From the IMG/VR virus record IMGVR_UViG_3300045988_063015, positions 1 through 45,976 of that record: a DNA stretch of 45,976 nucleotides. The stretch is one strand, 5' to 3'. Below the pieces are notes generated by a model. It ran no database searches. It saw only the letters and a program-made list of their open reading frames with translations, and was not told the DNA's origin. Of the stretch, positions 2,872-37,777 are shown one piece after another (the first letter of the stretch is position 1; every line of letters begins with the position of its first letter). The translations under genes were made by a program, and so were the position numbers. This DNA comes from a virus.

Positions 2872-4110
2872 ATGCTTACCCCGGAGTATCTGCAGCACGC
2901 GGCAGAGGGCGCAGAAGCCATCACAGAGGATTTGCACAACAGGATCATGCGGAAGATCGTAAAGGCGATTCTAACCCGCATGGAACGCGGCGAGAATTAC
3001 ATGTTGACGGCGGCGGACAAGTGGAGAATCGAAGCACTGCAGGAAGCTGGCTATTTGCTGGAAGATATACAGAAAGAGATAGCAAAGGCGACCAACCAGC
3101 AGCTATCAGAGATCAAATCAGCCTGCATTGACGCTGGAATACAGACGCTCAAATGGGATGACGCAGTATACACGGCGGCTGGGCTGGCACCAACGCCGCT
3201 TCTTCTTTCCCCAACACTTATGCGTGTTCTTGAAAGGGATTACAAGGCGACTGCAGGCACATGGCGTAACTTCACCCGGACGACCGCGGAAGAAGCGCAG
3301 AGACTCTTCATCAACGAGCTTGACAGCGCCTACCACAGGGTTCTGAGCGGCGGAGAGTCTTACGGCGCTGTGGTGGCTGATCTGATCGAGAAAGTGTCCG
3401 AGGAGGGGCTAACAGTCAAGTACCCGACCGGATACCGGCAAAGCCTTGAATCTGCGACCATGACCATTGTACGCACTGGTATAGCGCAGGCAGCGTGTGA
3501 TGTATCAGAAGCGCGAATGGAAGAAATGGATTGGGATATCATTCTTGTATCTGCTCATGTAGGCGCACGAACGGGAGACGGCGGGCAGAACCCGGGGAAT
3601 CATCTTTGGTGGCAAGGGCGATTCTATTCCCGAACCGGAAAAAACAAGAAATACCCGAATTTCTACGAGGTGACCGGATACGGCACCGGCGAGGGACTGG
3701 GCGGCTGGAATTGCCGTCATAGTTTCGGATCTGGTGACGGAAAGAACAATCCATTCGACGAGAAAAATATCTCTTACGCAGATAATCGTAAGGTGGAAGA
3801 AGCACAGAAGCGGCAACGATTGTTGGAACGCAGGATACGAAACAGCAAAAGGCAAATTCAAACATTGCAATTTGCTATAGACAACGCAAGCGACAATGAG
3901 ACGAAAAGCAAATTGCAAAGTAGAACAGAGCAAAAAGCTAATTTGCTTAGTAAACAAAATAAAGCATATCGCAAGTTTTGCGAAGACAACAACCTGCGCC
4001 CTTATGATGAGCGATTGAAAATAGCCCATTGGGACAGAAAACAGGCAGCAAGAGCCGCAGCGGATGCACGGCGATATCAAAAACGCAAAAAGGAAAAAGC
4101 AGATGATTGA
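2872..4110 (+). CDS. Minor head / head-morphogenesis protein (Mu F / SPP1 gp7 family)
   Basis: 412 aa directly after the portal region. It carries the GGWNCRHS motif typical of the MuF family and a basic coiled C-terminus. Confidence 0.85.
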   Translation: MLTPEYLQHAAEGAEAITEDLHNRIMRKIVKAILTRMERGENYMLTAADKWRIEALQEAGYLLEDIQKEIAKATNQQLSEIKSACIDAGIQTLKWDDAVYTAAGLAPTPLLLSPTLMRVLERDYKATAGTWRNFTRTTAEEAQRLFINELDSAYHRVLSGGESYGAVVADLIEKVSEEGLTVKYPTGYRQSLESATMTIVRTGIAQAACDVSEARMEEMDWDIILVSAHVGARTGDGGQNPGNHLWWQGRFYSRTGKNKKYPNFYEVTGYGTGEGLGGWNCRHSFGSGDGKNNPFDEKNISYADNRKVEEAQKRQRLLERRIRNSKRQIQTLQFAIDNASDNETKSKLQSRTEQKANLLSKQNKAYRKFCEDNNLRPYDERLKIAHWDRKQAARAAADARRYQKRKKEKADD

Positions 4111-20700: not shown

Positions 20701-20807
20701 ATATAGACATGTATAGCGCGCTTGGAGTTGCGTATAAGGCAATACAAGAACTGAGCGCGAAAGTAAAAACACTCGAAAAGCTCATAGAATCAAAACAGGG
20801 AGAATAA
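17715..20807 (+). CDS. Tail-tip / Tal-like minor structural protein with C-terminal S74-type intramolecular chaperone domain
   Basis: 1030 aa with a prophage-tail-like N-terminus and a short G-X-Y run (GADGADGKPGTDGKPGRT). The C-terminal GSRSEWKEEI...EHIGFVIGSE...YSALGVAYKAIQEL matches the auto-cleaving chaperone pattern. Confidence 0.8.
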   Translation: MKNVSSKFIEGIKSGIPIYPAAKVTLANGEILEFTAKKNFRVTGNSITQTAGNNSFPLGAAISKTIKLTVDNSDETLDSKDFLAAIIELKSQMHYADGTTEELKEGTFIVTDPVTPATTLEITAADDISKTAITYKPAIQYPATLRRIYQDVCRQCNLTIGTATFKNDTFTVETAPDGCTCRDLLGYIAMIAGGNAMCDENERVVIKSYDLSSVKKEDGSYNTDAFQVLENFKESPTVSTDPIRVTGVKTTIEGEEGKESELIVGTTEYCFSVSNPLLDGKEKDGLQLISTSAVGLEMYAFSGDHIAYPIAEVMDTCFVKTLKGSIYPTVITSVEYNYLGATKLQCDLDTPERTATSYGGKAAEIYQKFRRVVKRHYTEFEKQMSDLSERIENSSGVFMTQETQPDGSVIYYLHNREKLEESTIVWKMTAEAVAVSTDGGKTWNAGLTVDGDLISKIMTTIGINFDWGVGGTLVIQDANGKETAYMDATTGVVRFNVDSLTIQGQTVESIASGAAEKVAELAKNMTLQLTNEYQAISVDSSGNYSTFPTVTTSPIVMYGTEDITKKCSYSFTCSAGVTGVWDVSTLTYTVKTLTKNEGWVDVRASYLGTLAVTRRFSLAKVYAGADGADGKPGTDGKPGRTYYIEPSALVVKQGNDCSLSPNVLTFHSYYRDGTDVARYDYAGRFKVEESYDGGQTWKTMYTSTANESGIEYSLYTNIVTAAGKAIVTAGKKAISVPRKMSMIRCSFYAASDTTHALDVQTLTVVKDASALGFDELFNILTNNGEIKGIYQKGGQLYISFTYAQGGVLTLGGKNDGHGQLIVLDENGTQIGAWTKNGLILDSVKRFTLGDFLSYDDNRDSVKLTMGGWQVKRTTVEGEPAEYWETSETQENGIGAYGPWVVWGGWNGKGPFNKANYNFVVTEDGSCKAMSWVTGSRSEWKEEICSYEDGALEKVENSKVYRYKLKNRRRENEEHIGFVIGSEYPLSDDLLDYEKDNIDMYSALGVAYKAIQELSAKVKTLEKLIESKQGE

Positions 20808-20808
20808 C

Positions 20809-21309
20809 ATGGCTGACAACATTTTAATTAGTGGATTGACTGAAAAAACACAGACCGGGTCAGATGACTATTTTATCATCGGAAGCTCTGATGCTAAGAA
20901 AATTTCTTCCGCCAATTTGAAAAAGGAATTTGAAAGTAGTCTTTACGCTGGAGCTGTAGGTGCTTCTTTAAAGAACAGCACTGTTAAAACTACGGGAGAG
21001 CGCTTAATTGGAACCTATAACGGAGCAAATGTATATGAGCAAATCATCGAAACGAAAATGACTAGCTTTGTTAGTGGAACATCGTTTGCAACGATAGAAA
21101 TTTCTATGTCTACCACGCCTGGTAAAGTGCTGAGCGTAGAAAATACGATTTATGGAGACAATAGCACGTATTCTCTACCTTATTTTTCGTGGGAAGGTGC
21201 TGTGAATACGTTTTTCTGGAACGTTGCAGGAACAAAATTAAAGTTCCGAAATAAGGCAGCGTGGGGGGCTAATTATACTCTTGTCACTACGGTTAGATAT
21301 CTTAGATAA
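20809..21309 (+). CDS. Fibre-associated structural protein
   Basis: 166 aa. The N-terminal ISGLTEKTQTGSDDYFIIGSSDAKKISSANLKKEF resembles the N-terminus of the next fibre gene. Confidence 0.55.
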   Translation: MADNILISGLTEKTQTGSDDYFIIGSSDAKKISSANLKKEFESSLYAGAVGASLKNSTVKTTGERLIGTYNGANVYEQIIETKMTSFVSGTSFATIEISMSTTPGKVLSVENTIYGDNSTYSLPYFSWEGAVNTFFWNVAGTKLKFRNKAAWGANYTLVTTVRYLR

Positions 21310-21382
21310 CAAGACCACTGAGTAAAACGACACAGGAAGTATAATAGTTATATGAAAACAGTATCTTATAGGGAGAGAAAAA

Positions 21383-22540
21383 ATGCCACAGTTTAATGAA
21401 TACACAGATAAAACGGAACTGTCTGATTCTGACATTTCCGTTTTATACGACGCGTCCAGCAGGACGACAAAAAGGTTTTCTTTTTTGAACATAAGCCGTT
21501 ATGTGCTTGCGAAGCTTTCCACTCGGTTGTTTACAAATCTTTCCACAGAAGATAAAACAATCCCGGGTGCTATCAACGAGGTCAACACTAAGGCGGCGAA
21601 GATTGATGATTTTGAAAACGTAATCGCCGAAAAAGCGAACAAGGAAGATATTCCGACGACGCTTTCTGAGCTAGCAAGTGACAGTGAACACAATACGGTT
21701 ACGGCTGCGGAAAAAGAAATCTGGAATAAAAAAAGTGATTTCAGTGGAAGTTACAATGATTTGACAGATAAACCGGAAATCCACGGTGTTACGGTTGACG
21801 AAACACTTGATGAAACATCAGAAAATCCCGTGCAGAATAAAGCTGTATACGCTGAATTCCAGAAAAAGGCCGGGAAAAATGACATTCCTAAATCGCTGTC
21901 AGCGTTGGCCGCTGATGAAAACCATAGAACTGTTACAGACACTGAAAAAGAAAATTGGAATGCAAAAAGCGATTTTTCCGGCGACTACAGCGAACTTTCC
22001 AACAAACCAAAAATTCCAGAAAAATTAGCGGATCTTGCGGAAGATGAAACACATCGTACCGTTACCGACAGCGAAAAAGGTGCGTGGGACGCAAAAAGTA
22101 ATTTTTCTGGTAACTATTCGGATCTGTCCGGCGTTCCAGCGATCCCGGAAAAACTTCCGAACCCAAACAAGCTGACATTTTCCGGCGCTGTTACTGCTGA
22201 GTATGACGGCTCTGGCGCGGTAACGGTGGAAATTCCAGAGGAAAACGACTACAGAGTTGCCAGAATCGAAAAAGGAACGACGGACAGCACAGTGGAACTT
22301 GAACCGAATAAGCTTTATATTTTTCCAGAAATGGGGAGCTTAACTTATACGCTTGCGGTGCCGAACGACTCGGCGGTTGCGAACGAATATCATTTTGTTT
22401 TCAAAAGCGGCGCAACAGCAACAAGAGTTGTACACCCGGCAGGGGTCAATATCGGGAGCTTTAGCGTTGAGTCAAATAAAATCTATGAGGTGTCGATCCT
22501 TGAGGGCTTGCTGACGAGCCAGAGTTGGGCGGTGAGCTGA
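21383..22540 (+). CDS. Tail fibre protein with three ~45-aa repeats
   Basis: 385 aa. The unit L(S/A)xLAxDxxH(R/N)TVTxxEKxxWxxKSxFSGxYxxLxxxPxI occurs three times. Confidence 0.75.
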   Translation: MPQFNEYTDKTELSDSDISVLYDASSRTTKRFSFLNISRYVLAKLSTRLFTNLSTEDKTIPGAINEVNTKAAKIDDFENVIAEKANKEDIPTTLSELASDSEHNTVTAAEKEIWNKKSDFSGSYNDLTDKPEIHGVTVDETLDETSENPVQNKAVYAEFQKKAGKNDIPKSLSALAADENHRTVTDTEKENWNAKSDFSGDYSELSNKPKIPEKLADLAEDETHRTVTDSEKGAWDAKSNFSGNYSDLSGVPAIPEKLPNPNKLTFSGAVTAEYDGSGAVTVEIPEENDYRVARIEKGTTDSTVELEPNKLYIFPEMGSLTYTLAVPNDSAVANEYHFVFKSGATATRVVHPAGVNIGSFSVESNKIYEVSILEGLLTSQSWAVS

Positions 22541-23001
22541 TGGAACGAAGAAGAACATTAGGAAGTGAGGCAGAAAGCTCAATGAATGAAGAATATGAAC
22601 TTGTCGGCACTGCAAGTATAACGGAAGAAACGGCTACTGTAAACATACAGTTGAGTAAACCTTGTACAGAGTTATATTTGTTTTGCGAGAAATTAAAAGC
22701 AACAAATAATACGCAATTAATTATTGGTATAGGTAATAACAATATTATGTCGGGTATAAATAATGAATTATCAGCAAATGTACAAAATACCATTCAGCAT
22801 ATAAGAAAGATAGGAAAGACGTGGATGAGGACGGGAAATAATCATGCGTCCTATCCGTTATCTACTGCCACGTCAACAATGTATACTGCAAAATTAAATG
22901 CAAAGAATCCAATACCAGAACAAATTTCTGCGATCACATTACAAGCAAATACGGGCATTGATAAAATCACATCTGGCACAATAGAAGTTTACGGGAGGTA
23001 A
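22540..23001 (+). CDS. MxRRR paralogue 1 (fibre-associated, unknown function)
   Basis: 153 aa starting MERRRTLG. Its ATG overlaps the fibre stop (TGATG), and it is more AT-rich than its neighbours. Confidence 0.6.
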   Translation: MERRRTLGSEAESSMNEEYELVGTASITEETATVNIQLSKPCTELYLFCEKLKATNNTQLIIGIGNNNIMSGINNELSANVQNTIQHIRKIGKTWMRTGNNHASYPLSTATSTMYTAKLNAKNPIPEQISAITLQANTGIDKITSGTIEVYGR

Positions 23002-23007
23002 GTTGAC

Positions 23008-23109
23008 ATGAAACACAAATTAAACCACAATCTGGTCGGTCGGTCGGTCGGTCGGTCGGTCGGTGATCTAACTGACTCGCTCCTGCCGAGCAAGGCGGTG
23101 AGGGTATGA
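23008..23109 (+). CDS. Leader ORF 1 (33 aa) carrying the (GGTC)7 tract
   Basis: GGGAGG lies 9 nt upstream of the ATG. The product is MKHKLNHNLVGRSVGRSVGDLTDSLLPSKAVRV, and its stop TGA overlaps the next start (ATGA at 23106..23109). Confidence 0.4.
   Translation: MKHKLNHNLVGRSVGRSVGDLTDSLLPSKAVRV
23034..23064. repeat. Tetranucleotide microsatellite (GGTC)7+GGT
   Basis: Counted directly: 31 nt with perfect periodicity. Confidence 0.97.
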
Positions 23110-23564
23110 GCCGCCGGAGAATGATGATGCAAGCGCAGGAGGTAGAAAATATGAATTGGAAAGAAGTAAAAACAGTAGTTGCGCAGAATGATGGCGATAC
23201 ATTATATGTAGACGGATTTGAAGCGGAAAGAATTAGAGTGACAGCGATGCTTGCGACCGTAACAGATAATAGAGGACTCCGCTTTAATATTTCGGAAAAT
23301 GCATATGAAAATTCTTTTAACATAGGAACATCTACGTCGACTGAATTTAGACCGCTTTTATGCGAAATTGGAGTTGTTGGAAATTATGCGATAAGCACAG
23401 CCTTTTGCCCTCCCCGAGTTTCTGCTGCTGTTAACGTACAAAACGCAGTAGCGGGAGGAATGGCATTACCAAACGGAGAAACACTTATAAAGCGATTCAG
23501 AATTGGCTCATCGAACGACAAATTGAAAGCGGGGTCTTGGTTGAAAATAGAAAAATGGGAATAG
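23106..23564 (+). CDS. MxRRR paralogue 2
   Basis: 152 aa starting MSRRRMMM. The GGCGGTGAG-N3-ATG junction is identical to the one in front of paralogue 1. Confidence 0.6.
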   Translation: MSRRRMMMQAQEVENMNWKEVKTVVAQNDGDTLYVDGFEAERIRVTAMLATVTDNRGLRFNISENAYENSFNIGTSTSTEFRPLLCEIGVVGNYAISTAFCPPRVSAAVNVQNAVAGGMALPNGETLIKRFRIGSSNDKLKAGSWLKIEKWE

Positions 23565-23578
23565 GAGTTGATACAGAT

Positions 23579-23644
23579 ATGAATGATGCTAAAATCCTGA
23601 CAGCACAGCACAGCACAGCACAGCACAGCACAGCGGGTAATTGA
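23579..23644 (+). CDS. Leader ORF 2 (21 aa in this sequence) carrying the (ACAGC)7 tract
   Basis: The product is MNDAKILTAQHSTAQHSTAGN, ending at TGA 23642. With 8 (or 5) repeat units it would extend to TAA 23688..23690, overlapping the ATG at 23684. Confidence 0.35.
   Translation: MNDAKILTAQHSTAQHSTAGN
23600..23634. repeat. Pentanucleotide microsatellite (ACAGC)7
   Basis: Counted directly: 35 nt with perfect periodicity. Confidence 0.97.
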
Positions 23645-23683
23645 GCTTAAAAACCGCATCAACGCCGAGAAAGCTGTGGAGAC

Positions 23684-24040
23684 ATGGTAAGGCGGCGGAC
23701 GATGCTGGCAGAGATGCCACAAGGGGCGGATGGTATGATGCTGGAATATGTTGGCGATGTTACTTTGGCCAATAACTACGGTACGGTAACGGTAAATTTC
23801 CCGGTCGAAAATGATACTCTGTATATCTTGAGACCGAAAAATTACCCGTACATCAAAGTTATAGCAATATTAGTGCACGGCGATAAATATGGTTTTATAT
23901 TTTGCGCTGAGAATACAACAGGCGGAGCATGGACAGAACGAAACTATGACGTATCTGACGGAAAAGTAGATTTTAAGGCGCGTATCGCCGAAAACAAAAA
24001 TGAAACTATTGATTTTGCAATCTATAAAATGGATCTGTAA
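23684..24040 (+). CDS. MxRRR paralogue 3
   Basis: 118 aa starting MVRRRTML. No well-spaced SD is present (GGAG sits only 2 nt from the ATG). Confidence 0.55.
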   Translation: MVRRRTMLAEMPQGADGMMLEYVGDVTLANNYGTVTVNFPVENDTLYILRPKNYPYIKVIAILVHGDKYGFIFCAENTTGGAWTERNYDVSDGKVDFKARIAENKNETIDFAIYKMDL

Positions 24041-24067
24041 AATCAAACGGAAGGGGGTGATTAAAAA

Positions 24068-24427
24068 GTGCACGCAAAATTGTTAAACGGCTGCCTGCGC
24101 AGCTCCCCGTCTACTGTTATTTTAGACGGCAGATCGATCAATAACCCGCTACCGGAAGAACTGGAACAGCTGGGCTATAAACCTGTGGTATACACGGATG
24201 CACCAGCCGATCAGACCGAGGGCAAGCACTGGGAGTCAGAGTGGGCAGAGGGAGAGACGGAGATCAGACAAGTCTGGAGGCTTGTCGATGATCCGATCTA
24301 TCCGGATCCGGAGCCGACACCAGAGGAAAGAATCAGCAATTTAGAAACCGAAACAGATGAGTTAAAGGCCACATCAGATGATATCATCTTGATGATGGCG
24401 GATTTAATCGGAGGAGAAAAGAAATGA
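24068..24427 (+). CDS. Conserved phage protein of the fibre/lysis junction
   Basis: 119 aa with a GTG start after AAGGGGGTGA. The LEQLGYKPVVYTDAP pattern is common in Firmicutes phages upstream of XkdX/holin genes. Confidence 0.55.
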   Translation: MHAKLLNGCLRSSPSTVILDGRSINNPLPEELEQLGYKPVVYTDAPADQTEGKHWESEWAEGETEIRQVWRLVDDPIYPDPEPTPEERISNLETETDELKATSDDIILMMADLIGGEKK

Positions 24428-24576
24428 AGACTTTAAATAATTTAAAAATGAAAATCATGGTAAGAGCTTTTAGAATCCGGATCAAGGACGGAGAGAATTT
24501 TGAGGACATTGCAGCTGACTACCCGGCGCTGACGGTTGACGACCTCGAAGCGATCAAAGCCGAGCTTGAGAAATAA
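24424..24576 (+). CDS. XkdX-like small protein
   Basis: 50 aa (MKTLNNLKMKIMVRAFRIRIKDGENFEDIAADYPALTVDDLEAIKAELEK). It has an ATGA overlap with the upstream gene and is below the ORF-track size cutoff. Confidence 0.45.
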   Translation: MKTLNNLKMKIMVRAFRIRIKDGENFEDIAADYPALTVDDLEAIKAELEK

Positions 24577-24703
24577 GGGGCGCGAATGGAGATCAGAGGA
24601 AGACCGTAAGACCTCGTTAAAAAAATCAAAAAATAAATCACAAAATAACCGTTGTGGGACTAATATATATCATCCTGCGGCGGTTTTTGAAAACGAGGTA
24701 AAA

Positions 24704-28535: not shown

Positions 28536-28585
28536 TGAAAAACGCGAAAATGGCGTATTTGCGGGCAGAATAAGAGGTATGGATA

Positions 28586-28632
28586 CTTGACTTTTAATCA
28601 AGTTGTCCGGGGTTCGAATCCCCGATGCTTCA
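28586..28632 (+). other. attP core: 3' two-thirds of a tRNA-Lys(UUU) (anticodon arm, variable loop, T-arm, 3' acceptor strand)
   Basis: CTTGA-CTTTTAA-TCAAG (anticodon TTT), then TTGTC, CGGGG-TTCGAAT-CCCCG, and ATGCTTC-A. No matching 5' acceptor strand or D-arm lies upstream, and the site is adjacent to the integrase. Confidence 0.7.
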
Positions 28633-28711: not shown

Positions 28712-28760
28712 ATCAATGTAAGGGATTGTAGGGGAATGTAAAGGAATGTAAATGTGTCAT
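28712..28760 (+). repeat. Tandem ~10-bp repeats (GGAATGTA-like, four copies)
   Basis: caatgtaa gggattgta ggggaatgta aaggaatgta aatgtgt, with roughly 10-bp phasing, between attP and the int 3' end. Confidence 0.5.
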
Positions 28761-28771
28761 TTTCGTGTCAC
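28750..28771 (+). repeat. 22-bp direct repeat, copy 2
   Basis: AAATGTGTCATTTTCGTGTCAC, overlapping the int stop codon. Confidence 0.6.
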
Positions 28772-29874
28772 ATGGAAAGAGCTGCTTCTACCGCTCCGGC
28801 GGTGTCCTCTTTTTCCAGCATAATATGATTGTAAATCCTCAAAACCATTGCTTCGTCATCCCCCAGGAGCGACGCGATGTTCTTGATCGAGATGCGCGGG
28901 ATCTGGTAGCAGAGCGACGTGCAGTAGTTGTGCCGGAAGATATGGGCTGTGAGTCCGCATACGGGCTTTTCAGCGACTCTATTCATTTCCTTGATGATTC
29001 TTTCCCACTTCCGGCGGTAAGAGGATTTAGATACCATTTTGCCGCCCTGCATGGAAAACAGAAGCGTTCCCTTGATACAGAACCGCACGTAGCTTTCCAG
29101 CGACGTATAGAGCTGCTGCGGAATTGGAACCTGCCGGAATCCGTTCTTCGATTTCGGTTCTTTGATGCTCGGCTTTCCGGCATCATCGAACTCGATTGAT
29201 TTATTCACGTTGATGACCTTTTCGGAAAAATCAATATCAAACCGTGTGAGAGCAAGAACTTCTCCACATCGTAGCCCCGTGCAGTATAAGATATCCACAA
29301 AAATCCGATCAGATGGGGATAACTCTGCTTTCACCATGGCGTTTTTTTCGTTTTCGGTTAACGGTCGTTTCTCATCCGCCTTGTAGTCGATCGGCTTCAT
29401 CACGTCCTTGAGATCCTCCAGCAGGTTGGCGGGATATAATCGGTCATGCACCGCGGCCTTCATGATCTGCGAGAATGTAAGCTGTATCTGCTGCTGGATG
29501 CGTTTCTTTCCGGCCGCGTCGTTAAGGACTGTCTGGTAGTGGATCGGCAGGACATCGCAGAGCCGCACGCCGTCCATCTGTCGCAGATGCTTTTCAATGA
29601 TATTTTGGTACATCCTCTTCGTGTTGTTCGTTGCTTCGGCTTTGTAGGCTGTCAGCCACCGCCCGGCGTAGTCCAGAAACAGGATGTTTTTATCTCGGAC
29701 GGCTTCAAGGTTCTTAATTTTGTCGTTGTAGGCTGCCACCTTTGCTTCCAGATCCTTACTGCTTTTCTTCGACCGGATCGTAATATAGTGCTTTTTCCCA
29801 TCAACATAACTTCCATCCCACACACGGGCTTGAAAATACCCGTTCTTTTGCTTTGTATACTTCGCCTTTGCCAT
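28768..29874 (-). CDS. int: Tyrosine recombinase / phage integrase
   Basis: 368 aa with an N-terminal SAM-like domain. Catalytic-region motifs are TGLRCGEVLAL, AHIFRHNYCT and LRIYNHIM. Confidence 0.92.
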   Translation of the reverse strand: MAKAKYTKQKNGYFQARVWDGSYVDGKKHYITIRSKKSSKDLEAKVAAYNDKIKNLEAVRDKNILFLDYAGRWLTAYKAEATNNTKRMYQNIIEKHLRQMDGVRLCDVLPIHYQTVLNDAAGKKRIQQQIQLTFSQIMKAAVHDRLYPANLLEDLKDVMKPIDYKADEKRPLTENEKNAMVKAELSPSDRIFVDILYCTGLRCGEVLALTRFDIDFSEKVINVNKSIEFDDAGKPSIKEPKSKNGFRQVPIPQQLYTSLESYVRFCIKGTLLFSMQGGKMVSKSSYRRKWERIIKEMNRVAEKPVCGLTAHIFRHNYCTSLCYQIPRISIKNIASLLGDDEAMVLRIYNHIMLEKEDTAGAVEAALSM

Positions 29875-37004: not shown

Positions 37005-37078
37005 AAATGCCCTCCGGTGAGACGAAGGGCATCCGTAAAAAGACAACATCATCATAGCACATGAAAGGAGAAAAGGCA

Positions 37079-37777
37079 ATGGGAATGAAAGGATTTAAAG
37101 GGTTCGAGAAAGATTTTTCCTGCAGAGGGAAACAGTACGAGGAAAACACGACTTACGAGGAGAACGGAACCGGATGCTGCCATAAAGGAGTTATGCATTT
37201 CTGCGAGGATCCGTGGGAGGTGCTGAATCATTATGATCTCGTAGATGGAAATGGAGATTTTTCCGAATTTGCGGAAGTGGACGCCCGGGGACAGGTTTGG
37301 AGTGATGGGGATAAGCGTGCGACAGATAAGCTCCATATCGGAGCAAAGCTCGGATTTAAAGGCTTTATCAAAGCGTGTGTTGATTTTACGGTCGAGCGTA
37401 CAAAATTTGACGACTTAATCGGCTCGTCCGGGAACTCTGCGAAGATCGGAAGCTCCGGGAACTCTGCGAAGATCGGAAGCTCCGGGGACTATGCGAAGAT
37501 CGGAAGCTCCGGGGACTATGCGAAGATCGGAAGCTCCGGGAACTCTGCGCAGATCAATAGCACCGGTGAAGATGCGGTGATTATGTGTGCGGGTAATGAA
37601 TCACGAGCAAAAGCCAAAAAGGGAAGCTGGATCACGCTTGCGGAATGGGTGGAAGATGAAGAAAAAGGACGCTATGTGCCGGTATGCGTAAAAACTGAGT
37701 ACGTAGACGGCGAAAAAATCAAAGAAGACACCTATTACACGCTGAAAAGCGGAGAATTTGTGGAGGTAGAAGAATGA
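37079..37777 (+). CDS. DUF7666-like protein with five 9-aa IGSSG(N/D)(S/Y)AK repeats
   Basis: KGFKGFEKDFSCRGKQYEENTTYEE...MHFCEDPWEVLNHY has the family pattern as I recall it. The start is ATG at 37079 or 37085. Confidence 0.65.
   Translation: MGMKGFKGFEKDFSCRGKQYEENTTYEENGTGCCHKGVMHFCEDPWEVLNHYDLVDGNGDFSEFAEVDARGQVWSDGDKRATDKLHIGAKLGFKGFIKACVDFTVERTKFDDLIGSSGNSAKIGSSGNSAKIGSSGDYAKIGSSGDYAKIGSSGNSAQINSTGEDAVIMCAGNESRAKAKKGSWITLAEWVEDEEKGRYVPVCVKTEYVDGEKIKEDTYYTLKSGEFVEVEE
37418..37552 (+). repeat. 27-bp tandem repeat, five copies, in frame
   Basis: ATCGG(C/A)(T/A)(C/G)(G/C)TCCGGG(A/G)ACT(C/A)TGCG(A/C)AG units, 135 nt in total. Confidence 0.95.

Follow-up and report, generated by a model that had tools for sequence, protein, structure and literature searches.

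The window analysed here is the whole of IMG/VR virus record IMGVR_UViG_3300045988_063015, a 45,976-nt genome of a temperate siphovirus from the human gut. In its tail module, a fibre-like tail gene is followed by three small open reading frames (ORFs), ORF-1, ORF-2 and ORF-3, which we refer to as cassettes. ORF-2 and ORF-3 are each preceded by a short leader ORF containing a simple sequence repeat (SSR), and it is the leader of ORF-3, with its seven copies of the pentanucleotide ACAGC, that is the subject of this study (Table 1). The initial annotation of this DNA had proposed that the number of repeat units sets the frame in which the leader is read and, through it, whether ORF-3 is expressed. 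As described below, comparison with related phages supports this frame-gating interpretation.

Tandem Repeats Finder (TRF) and the frame analysis agree that the repeat is perfect and that it is read through from the leader ATG. A TAA and a TGA directly behind it close two of the three frames, so that in the present genotype the leader ends after 21 codons. The third frame, reached by the gain of one unit or the loss of two, runs on to a TAA which overlaps the start codon of ORF-3 in the arrangement ATGGTAA (23684-23690). ON requires 5n = 1 mod 3, i.e. n = 5, 8 or 11 units; n = 7 gives OFF. The leader of ORF-2 follows the same logic in the opposite state: its TGA overlaps the ORF-2 ATG and its frame is open. 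Thus, as initially annotated, the present ACAGC allele is predicted to be OFF and the neighbouring (GGTC)n allele ON. Homologues of the ORF-3 leader in relatives begin with MYNDKILT (L009), MNKILT (L017) or MNNAKMLT (L026 and others); L numbers here and below denote individual related loci.

The two tracts, 31 and 35 nt long and both inside leaders, are the only period-4/5 tracts of at least 20 nt in the 46 kb. None of this length arose in 300 dinucleotide-preserving shuffles of the window (0/300; longest 17 nt), and a chance origin of both tracts is excluded. The locus has two features of an SSR contingency locus, a perfect repeat far beyond chance and a placement in which its length changes the reading frame.

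Table 1 Features of the ORF-3 leader and the tail cassette array in the window, and repeat tracts in relatives
Feature	Position	Strand	Remarks
Shine-Dalgarno sequence AGGAG of leader 3	23563..23567	+	11 nt before ATG 23579; anti-Shine-Dalgarno pairing -10.8 kcal/mol
Leader ORF 3, present frame, MNDAKILTAQHSTAQHSTAGN, 21 codons	23579..23644	+	MNDAKILT(AQHST)2.6..GN, then TGA 23642-23644
(ACAGC)7 tract, 35 nt	23600..23634	+	TRF: perfect period 5, 7.0 copies, score 70, 100% matches
Off-frame stops in GGGTAATTGA	23638..23644	+	TAA 23638-40 and TGA 23642-44; frame analysis
ON-frame leader tail VIELKNRINAEKAVETW, then stop	23637..23690	+	ends at TAA 23688-23690, overlapping ATG 23684
Predicted RNA hairpin over ORF-3 start	23654..23708	+	stems 23654-60/23701-08, 23663-67/23693-97, 23673-78/23683-88
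Cassette ORF-3 (MVRRRTML..., 118 aa)	23684..24040	+	putatively gated gene behind ACAGC leader
Fibre-like tail gene, 385 aa	21383..22540	+	after tape-measure gene and phrog_6616 tail protein; before array
Cassette ORF-1 (MERRR..., 153 aa)	22540..23001	+	without repeat; start overlaps fibre stop (TGATG)
Leader ORF 2, with (GGTC)7.75 at 23034-23064	23008..23109	+	TGA overlaps ATG 23106 (ATGA); predicted ON
Cassette ORF-2 (MSRRR..., 152 aa)	23106..23564	+	behind GGTC leader
Conserved 119-aa gene	24068..24427	+	downstream of array; marks array end
(ACAGC)n in relatives			7-15 units
(ACAG)n in relatives			~6-14 units
(GTCA)n in relatives			~5-17 units
(GGTC)n in relatives			6-17.5 units
Compound (ACGGC)19(ACAGC)3	L117 1900-2009		~110 nt, ~22 units

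Design of the putative switch and repeat length in related arrays

Eighty related loci were collected from IMG/VR, anchored on the conserved gene of 119 amino acids (aa) downstream of the array, and further contigs from ENA, Logan and NCBI were added via exact-protein look-ups. Period-4/5 SSRs of at least 20 nt are found in 28 of about 50 close loci and are confined to ~1.6 kb upstream of the 119-aa gene. Five repeat units, ACAGC, ACGGC, ACAG, GTCA and GGTC, occupy the equivalent position, in tracts of 21-110 nt. The design of the sequence behind the repeat is kept in all 43 of 43 distinct sequences: two frames are closed within 1-14 nt of the tract, while the third remains open for 42-63 nt, until a stop that shares nucleotides with the start codon of an x-RRR ORF (ATGA or ATGNTAA/TGA). 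In L009, TAATTGA has become TAACTGA with both off-frame stops retained, and in L111 the leader stop has changed from TAA to TGA through a GTA to GTG substitution that is synonymous in ORF-3. Homologous leaders (..NKILT) carry either the tetranucleotide ACAG or the pentanucleotides ACAGC/ACGGC; the unit therefore evolves while the switch design persists. ORF-3-type leaders may also hold tracts interrupted by ACGAC (L117 1900-2009; L008 2837-2933; the starts of L011/L013, compound or interrupted).

The number of cassettes per array ranges from 1 to 4. All relatives have a MERRR-type cassette directly behind the fibre gene, and this first cassette lacks an SSR and overlaps the fibre stop. Each further cassette has its own SSR (43 cases of at least 20 nt, plus 7 short tracts that are probably locked), and phages with a single cassette have none. 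Together, these sequences point to an array rule: the first cassette is repeat-free and every additional cassette is repeat-gated. ORF-1 of the window, repeat-free and without a hairpin enclosing its start codon, is predicted to be constitutive.

A second architecture is found in relatives, in which an ACAGC or ACAG tract is fused in-frame to the cassette itself, encoding MNNAKMLT(AQHST)n-LRRRLL.... It is predicted ON in L026, L031, L054 and L060/L061, and OFF in L029, L032, L033, L035, L045, L048 and L073. The L-R-R-R codons, TTA AGG CGT AGG, supply the off-frame TAA and TAG. In these fused genes the repeat must be translated because the only nearby start lies upstream of it; when ON, the predicted proteins have an N-terminal extension of variable length.

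Length variants, the absence of which the initial annotation had taken to argue against a switch, are present, with 7-15 ACAGC units and tracts of 21-110 nt for the other units. L069 and L071, from different samples, differ over 10,267 nt by 2 single-nucleotide polymorphisms (SNPs) and two SSR indels only (GTCA 45 versus 65 nt; ACAG 50 versus 34 nt), which gives predicted states of ON/OFF in L069 versus OFF/ON in L071. L113-L117, from five samples and with an identical ORF-1 protein, show 0-1 mismatches over 1.2-4.3 kb; their GGTC tracts measure 54, 58, 66, 66 and 70 nt and their GACA tracts 33, 58 and 62 nt, with predicted states that flip. Unit-step length polymorphism among near-identical genomes is thus seen in relatives, not for the window's own allele. 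The proposal that the two switches vary independently also fits, as all four combinations are predicted: ON/ON in L061, ON/OFF in L069, OFF/ON in L071 and OFF/OFF in L070. An excess of ON alleles, which would have been a sign of selection, is absent: 17 of 42 distinct alleles are ON (40% versus 1/3 expected, p = 0.33), which is the expectation for an unbiased switch sampled at consensus level. The SSR tracts are also the exact sites of sixteen contig ends and three scaffold gaps, breaks that may reflect within-sample heterogeneity.

Scans of IMG/VR and JGI metagenomes with the exact flank and repeat DNA, and with an ORF-3 profile, gave no matches. The ORF-3-type cassette body is rare and was seen only in ENA and Logan assemblies.

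A prophage-like locus was also found in a bacterial assembly (L118; NCBI GCA_003604455.1, QZLQ01000010.1, a 217-kb contig). It has the order MERRR cassette, (GTCA)7.75 leader (predicted OFF), MNRRR cassette. Its surroundings are unusual, with terminase genes directly upstream and a CBM_5_12 protein downstream, and it could reveal a host.

Cassette proteins and a predicted start-codon hairpin

The initial annotation regarded ORF-3 as a paralogue of ORF-1 and ORF-2. This stands for the N-terminal ~45 residues, which are homologous to those of the other cassettes, and fails for the remainder of the protein. Full-length paralogy was rejected: BLASTP detects no significant similarity between any two of the three, and a profile comparison matches only the N-termini. 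With hhalign, the ORF-1/2 and ORF-3 families align over residues 1-45 (95% probability, E = 2.8e-8), a signal that vanishes once 14 residues are trimmed. The relatives contribute 80 distinct cassette proteins of at least 8 body types. The cassettes thus appear to consist of a common N-terminal M-x-R-R-R module set on unrelated bodies, i.e. a conserved anchoring module with variable C-terminal parts. The three arginines are encoded by CGA AGA AGA, CGC CGG AGA and AGG CGG CGG in ORF-1, -2 and -3, respectively. Because the three ORFs use different codons, RRR appears to be conserved as protein, which points to ATG 23684 as the true start of ORF-3. All public gene calls (P0001-P0007) begin ORF-3 at M7 (23702), giving 112 aa, and an exact-protein look-up of the 118-aa form found nothing on record for this reason. 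The leaders are absent from all gene calls, and some records carry shortened versions of ORF-1 (139 aa) and ORF-2 (137 aa). The median dN/dS (nonsynonymous to synonymous substitution ratio) of ORF-3 is 0.24 and the gene is intact in 9 lineages, which indicates purifying selection.

Both ORF-3 and ORF-1 were modelled by AlphaFold (AF2) as beta-sandwiches whose N-terminal ends are disordered (model confidence, pLDDT, 72 and 70, respectively); the ORF-3 model has an 8-strand beta domain. The best Foldseek matches are weak (E >1e-3, template modelling (TM) score <0.4) and include lectins, carbohydrate-binding modules (CBMs), TNF-like folds and phage baseplate or tail-fibre parts. Searches of the cassettes against Pfam, PHROG and PADLOC gave no match, and tblastn against annotated phages gave nothing for ORF-1 and partial hypothetical matches only for the fibre gene. 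The cassettes are encoded distal to the tape measure, Tal and fibre genes of the tail module. From this position, the predicted fold class and the anchor/body layout, they are most likely alternative distal tail proteins, i.e. receptor-binding or tip proteins.

The RNA around the ORF-3 start is predicted to form a hairpin (Table 1). The 60 nt concerned (23652-23711) fold with -23.9 kcal/mol, one structure making up 78% of the ensemble (z = -3.43; 0/200 shuffles fold as well). In this prediction the AUG (23684-86) is base-paired, and the leader tail pairs with the R-R-R codons, which make up the 3' arm. Across 29 distinct SSR-gated junctions, a mean of 12.3 pairs enclose the ATG, at -15.8 kcal/mol; the corresponding values for 22 constitutive junctions are 2.1 pairs and -9.6 kcal/mol. 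The register of pairing between the 5' box and the R codons differs by cassette type (GGCGGT/ACCGCC, GCCGT/ACGGC, CGCCG/CGGCG). In these models the start-codon hairpin is specific to gated cassettes and would provide a physical basis for coupling. The signal lies only in the 60-nt junction: a fold of the entire 171-nt leader region showed no significant structure (z = -0.31). Pairing with the anti-Shine-Dalgarno (anti-SD) sequence has a median of -11.7 kcal/mol for leaders; at the ORF-3 start it is -7.4 kcal/mol, and this site is weak and badly spaced. SD strength was rejected as a general discriminator between leaders and coupled ORFs (p = 0.5; ORF-2-type starts have a good SD). The junction shows two features expected of translational coupling, a stop overlapping the start and a poorly accessible downstream start, the latter with a weaker result for the ORF-2 type.

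We consider it likely that (ACAGC)7 is a phage-encoded contingency locus, in which a slippage-prone repeat sits inside a dedicated upstream leader ORF. The leader would be initiated from its own SD sequence and ATG, while the ORF-3 start, with its weak and badly spaced SD, would be locked in the hairpin whose 3' arm is made of the cassette's own R-R-R codons. In the two OFF frames, ribosomes would stop 3-10 nt past the repeat, before the inner stems that pair the AUG, and the cassette would be silent. OFF-frame ribosomes would in this way leave the hairpin closed, which would also explain the position of the off-frame stops directly behind the tract. In the ON frame (5, 8 or 11 units), ribosomes would cross the 5' arm, terminate at the TAA on top of the ORF-3 ATG, open the hairpin and reinitiate on ORF-3, i.e. 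translational coupling by unmasking. Replication slippage would add or remove 5-nt units and so produce heritable, reversible flips of state. The sequences themselves show the anatomy, the conserved design, unit-step variants that flip the predicted state among near-clonal phages, the predicted hairpin with its restriction to gated cassettes, and purifying selection on ORF-3. That ORF-3 is translated according to the leader frame, how fast the switch flips and what the cassette proteins do are inferred from them.

At the level of the array, the first cassette would always be made and each extra cassette would have its own switch, so that a phage population could carry varied combinations of small beta-sandwich tail proteins as host-range bet-hedging. 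More tentatively, and at slightly under even confidence, we propose that temperate phages of gut Firmicutes may practise combinatorial phase variation of one to four tail-tip cassettes sharing a common docking module, each extra one being SSR/leader/hairpin-gated. A single lineage would then release virions with differing receptor-binding sets, bet-hedging by slippage.

Observations against the proposed frame gating and alternative explanations

Several observations weigh against frame gating. Firstly, RNAalifold found no compensatory pairs in the hairpin, because its stems are nearly invariant. The ORF-2-type hairpin is energetically unexceptional (z = 0.01) and ORF-2-type starts carry a good SD-like AAGGCGGTGA; because of these two features, coupling may be leakier for this type. 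Secondly, repeat numbers of 7 and 7.75 are shared by all five complete contigs of the window's own clone, which come from at least 3 studies. Because these contigs match the window at 100% identity (0-1 SNP in 6.3 kb), they are uninformative clones and constitute weak evidence; short tracts may be more stable, with 7 units switching slowly. Thirdly, ON is found in none of the seven complete ORF-3-type alleles (window, L009, L112, L017, L109, L117 and L015; P ~0.06 if frames are random). As ORF-3 has a dN/dS of ~0.24 all the same, either most of the population is selected against being ON, perhaps as prophage, or ORF-3 can be expressed without the ON frame. L015 (~2905-3000) lacks the leader ATG and most of the repeat, and L109 (~1140-1175) has only ~3 ACAG units. 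Fourthly, assembly of tandem repeats can miscount long tracts, the proposed function of the cassettes draws on weak fold matches (TM <0.4), and sigma-70-like hexamers with 10/12 consensus matches overlap both leader starts. Short tracts are also found in L057, L058, L062, L063 and L066, several IMG/VR phages having just (ACAGC)3; such apparently locked alleles may represent decay or fixation of a state.

The repeat could be hypermutable without regulatory effect, with ORF-3 translated from its own start or from M7 and the leader being a leftover of a duplication of the fibre 3' end. The uniform public calls at M7 would agree with this, and the leader tails do derive from the 3' end of the fibre gene, whose product ends in ..LLTSQSWAVS, resembling the leader tails ..LLPSKAVRV and ..AEKAVETW. 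Two further genes in the operon have SD-like pairing comparable to that at the ORF-3 start. That ORF-3 is under purifying selection despite all sampled alleles being OFF is easily understood if OFF is not really off. But a neutral repeat does not explain why the stop design recurs in 43 diverged sequences with five different repeat units, would not keep long perfect tracts at these sites alone and would not restrict start-codon hairpins to repeat-gated cassettes. Moreover, the in-frame variants make the repeat obligatory coding sequence, and the RRR codons before M7 are conserved at the amino-acid level. We therefore regard a repeat without effect as unlikely.

Repeat length might instead tune expression through the 5' untranslated region, independently of frame, from internal promoters. 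The candidates are the hexamers mentioned above, TTGATA-16-TAAAAT (23568-23595) and TTGACA-17-CACAAT (23003-23031). The TTGAC(A) directly before the leader ATG is invariant across relatives (L024-L073) despite adjacent indels, the spacing TTGxxA-16-TAAAAT recurs in L009, L027, L032 and L069, and this box could be an internal promoter or another binding site. However, the scan is one of consensus matches only, with 14 matches in the region versus 5.5 expected, and the position of the -10 hexamer is that of conserved leader codons, (D/N)-K-I-L. L017 is without the -35 box and L060/61 have the spacer deleted, both retaining SD and ATG, and in L008 the ATG has changed to GTG, still a start codon. 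A frame-independent mechanism does not predict the three-frame stop design, and the in-frame variants need transcripts that include the upstream ATG. We hold regulation by promoters in place of frame to be very unlikely.

The main role of the repeats and the conserved leader or junction boxes could also be that of recombination hot spots at which tail cassettes are exchanged between phages, frame effects being secondary. Positions 1-107 of L009 are 100% identical to window 23036-23142, comprising the GGTC leader tail and the ORF-2 start, versus 84-86% in the rest of the locus, which indicates recent recombination at the leader/junction. Likewise, the GACA leader precedes a 172-aa cassette in L008 and L009 and an ORF-3-type cassette in L017, and the variable number of cassettes would be expected from shuffling. 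Yet recombination needs no long perfect tracts, leaves the stop design and the hairpin unexplained, and does not account for near-clonal phages that differ by pure unit-step indels without cassette exchange. A role of recombination is compatible with a slippage-driven frame switch and is insufficient alone; as the principal explanation we likewise hold it to be very unlikely. An invertible segment or a diversity-generating retroelement (DGR) was rejected, as positions 20800-24600 contain no qualifying inverted or long direct repeats; the only recombinase in the window is the integrase (28768-29874).

Relation to known systems and other features of the window

Frame switching by SSRs is well established in bacteria, for instance by tetranucleotide repeats in lic, lgtC and mod of Haemophilus influenzae, by CTCTT pentamers in the signal-peptide region of Neisseria opa genes and by CAAAA pentamers behind the sclB start codon in Streptococcus pyogenes. 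As in these contingency loci, the repeats described here are perfect, of 4-5 nt, located at the 5' end of a translated region and predicted to switch frame by unit steps; several independent switches are present per genome, and repeat number varies among otherwise identical genomes. Unlike the bacterial loci, the switch is part of a temperate phage genome and belongs to the tail module, and the repeat of the window lies in a separate leader ORF with a stop/start overlap and a predicted start-codon hairpin. The classical in-gene form is also present in relatives of the window phage.

Control by start-site hairpins or leader peptides is known from the coat-to-replicase coupling and the lysis gene of RNA phage MS2, from ribosomal protein operons and from the ermC leader. 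The proposed coupling resembles these cases in that the downstream start would be sequestered and freed by upstream translation, with stop/start overlaps (ATGA, ATGGTAA). In the known cases the coupling is constitutive or follows a physiological signal (e.g. antibiotic-induced stalling), whereas here the input would be a mutable genotype, the leader frame set by repeat number.

Phage tails are diversified by the invertible tail-fibre segments of Mu (Gin) and P1 (Cin) and by the DGR of Bordetella phage BPP-1. Like these, the cassette switches would create heritable heterogeneity of the distal tail within one lineage, presumably as host-range bet-hedging. Unlike them, the locus has no flanking inverted repeats, adjacent invertase, template/variable repeat pair or reverse transcriptase, and the mechanism would be slippage and translation, not recombination or mutagenic retrohoming.

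SSR phase variation, textbook knowledge for bacterial pathogens, has only recently been proposed for phages, for homopolymer runs, by Gomez, Barrick and Waters (bioRxiv 2025, PMC12633550), in the first report of contingency loci in phages. These authors describe phage SSRs with reversible frameshifts and population heterogeneity, read as bet-hedging. Their loci, in lytic coliphages and vibriophages (e.g. T2 agt, T4 rIIA), are intragenic mononucleotide runs of at least 6 nt. Tail-fibre genes were depleted of SSRs, and the authors mention neither tetra- or pentanucleotide repeats nor leader ORFs or temperate gut phages (PMC12633550). By contrast, the tracts studied here are 21-110 nt long, of 4-5-nt units, confined to the tail cassette array and provided with what appears to be a dedicated coupling architecture. 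Full-text literature searches turned up neither phage tail modules with tetra- or pentanucleotide switches nor a leader ORF that contains a repeat and is coupled to its target by a start-codon hairpin. Judged by its sequence, the locus would thus be a previously undescribed form of phage-encoded contingency-locus phase variation with leader/hairpin coupling.

In this widespread group of temperate phages of the human gut, it is the tail module that gathers the long tetra- and pentanucleotide tracts, and near-clonal phages from different people differ at little else. If the cassettes are receptor-binding proteins, such switches would constitute a third general route to phage host-range plasticity, beside invertible segments and DGRs. 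This would affect how strain variation in the gut virome is read, and host range might be engineered or locked. Such a system is invisible in annotations because many assemblies break or gain N gaps at the repeats and gene calls mis-start ORF-3 and omit the leaders. The leader/hairpin module would in itself be a compact, portable and heritable stochastic switch.

The genome further encodes a portal, a minor capsid protein, a tape measure, a tail protein, a holin and an amidase, together with a tyrosine integrase, a CI-like repressor, an antirepressor and a replisome organiser. The tail module runs from the tape measure (13984) through the tail protein (17715) and the fibre-like gene, which holds repeated DFSGxYxDLxxKPxIP motifs, to the cassettes, an XkdX-like gene, the holin and the amidase. 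No close cultured relative of the phage was found, and a scan of reference genomes for the host gave only weak C-terminal matches, in metagenome-assembled genomes of Eubacteriales and Faecalibacterium.

Two further features were noted outside the array. A tRNA-like stretch of 59 nt (28574-28632, + strand; Rfam 39.8 bits, not called by ARAGORN) lies close to the tyrosine integrase gene of the - strand, at a distance of ~140 nt from its end, and is adjoined by a 10-nt tandem repeat, AATGTAAGGG x3.7 (28715-28751). This is probably the attP region with a tRNA gene fragment, from which the integration site in the host could be identified. Finally, a 27-nt tandem repeat (37427-37576; 4.8 copies, 95% matches), also readable with an 81-nt period, lies in the replication/early region inside an ORF (37061-37777) encoding a DUF7666 protein; it would encode in-frame 9-aa repeats, and its copy number may vary.

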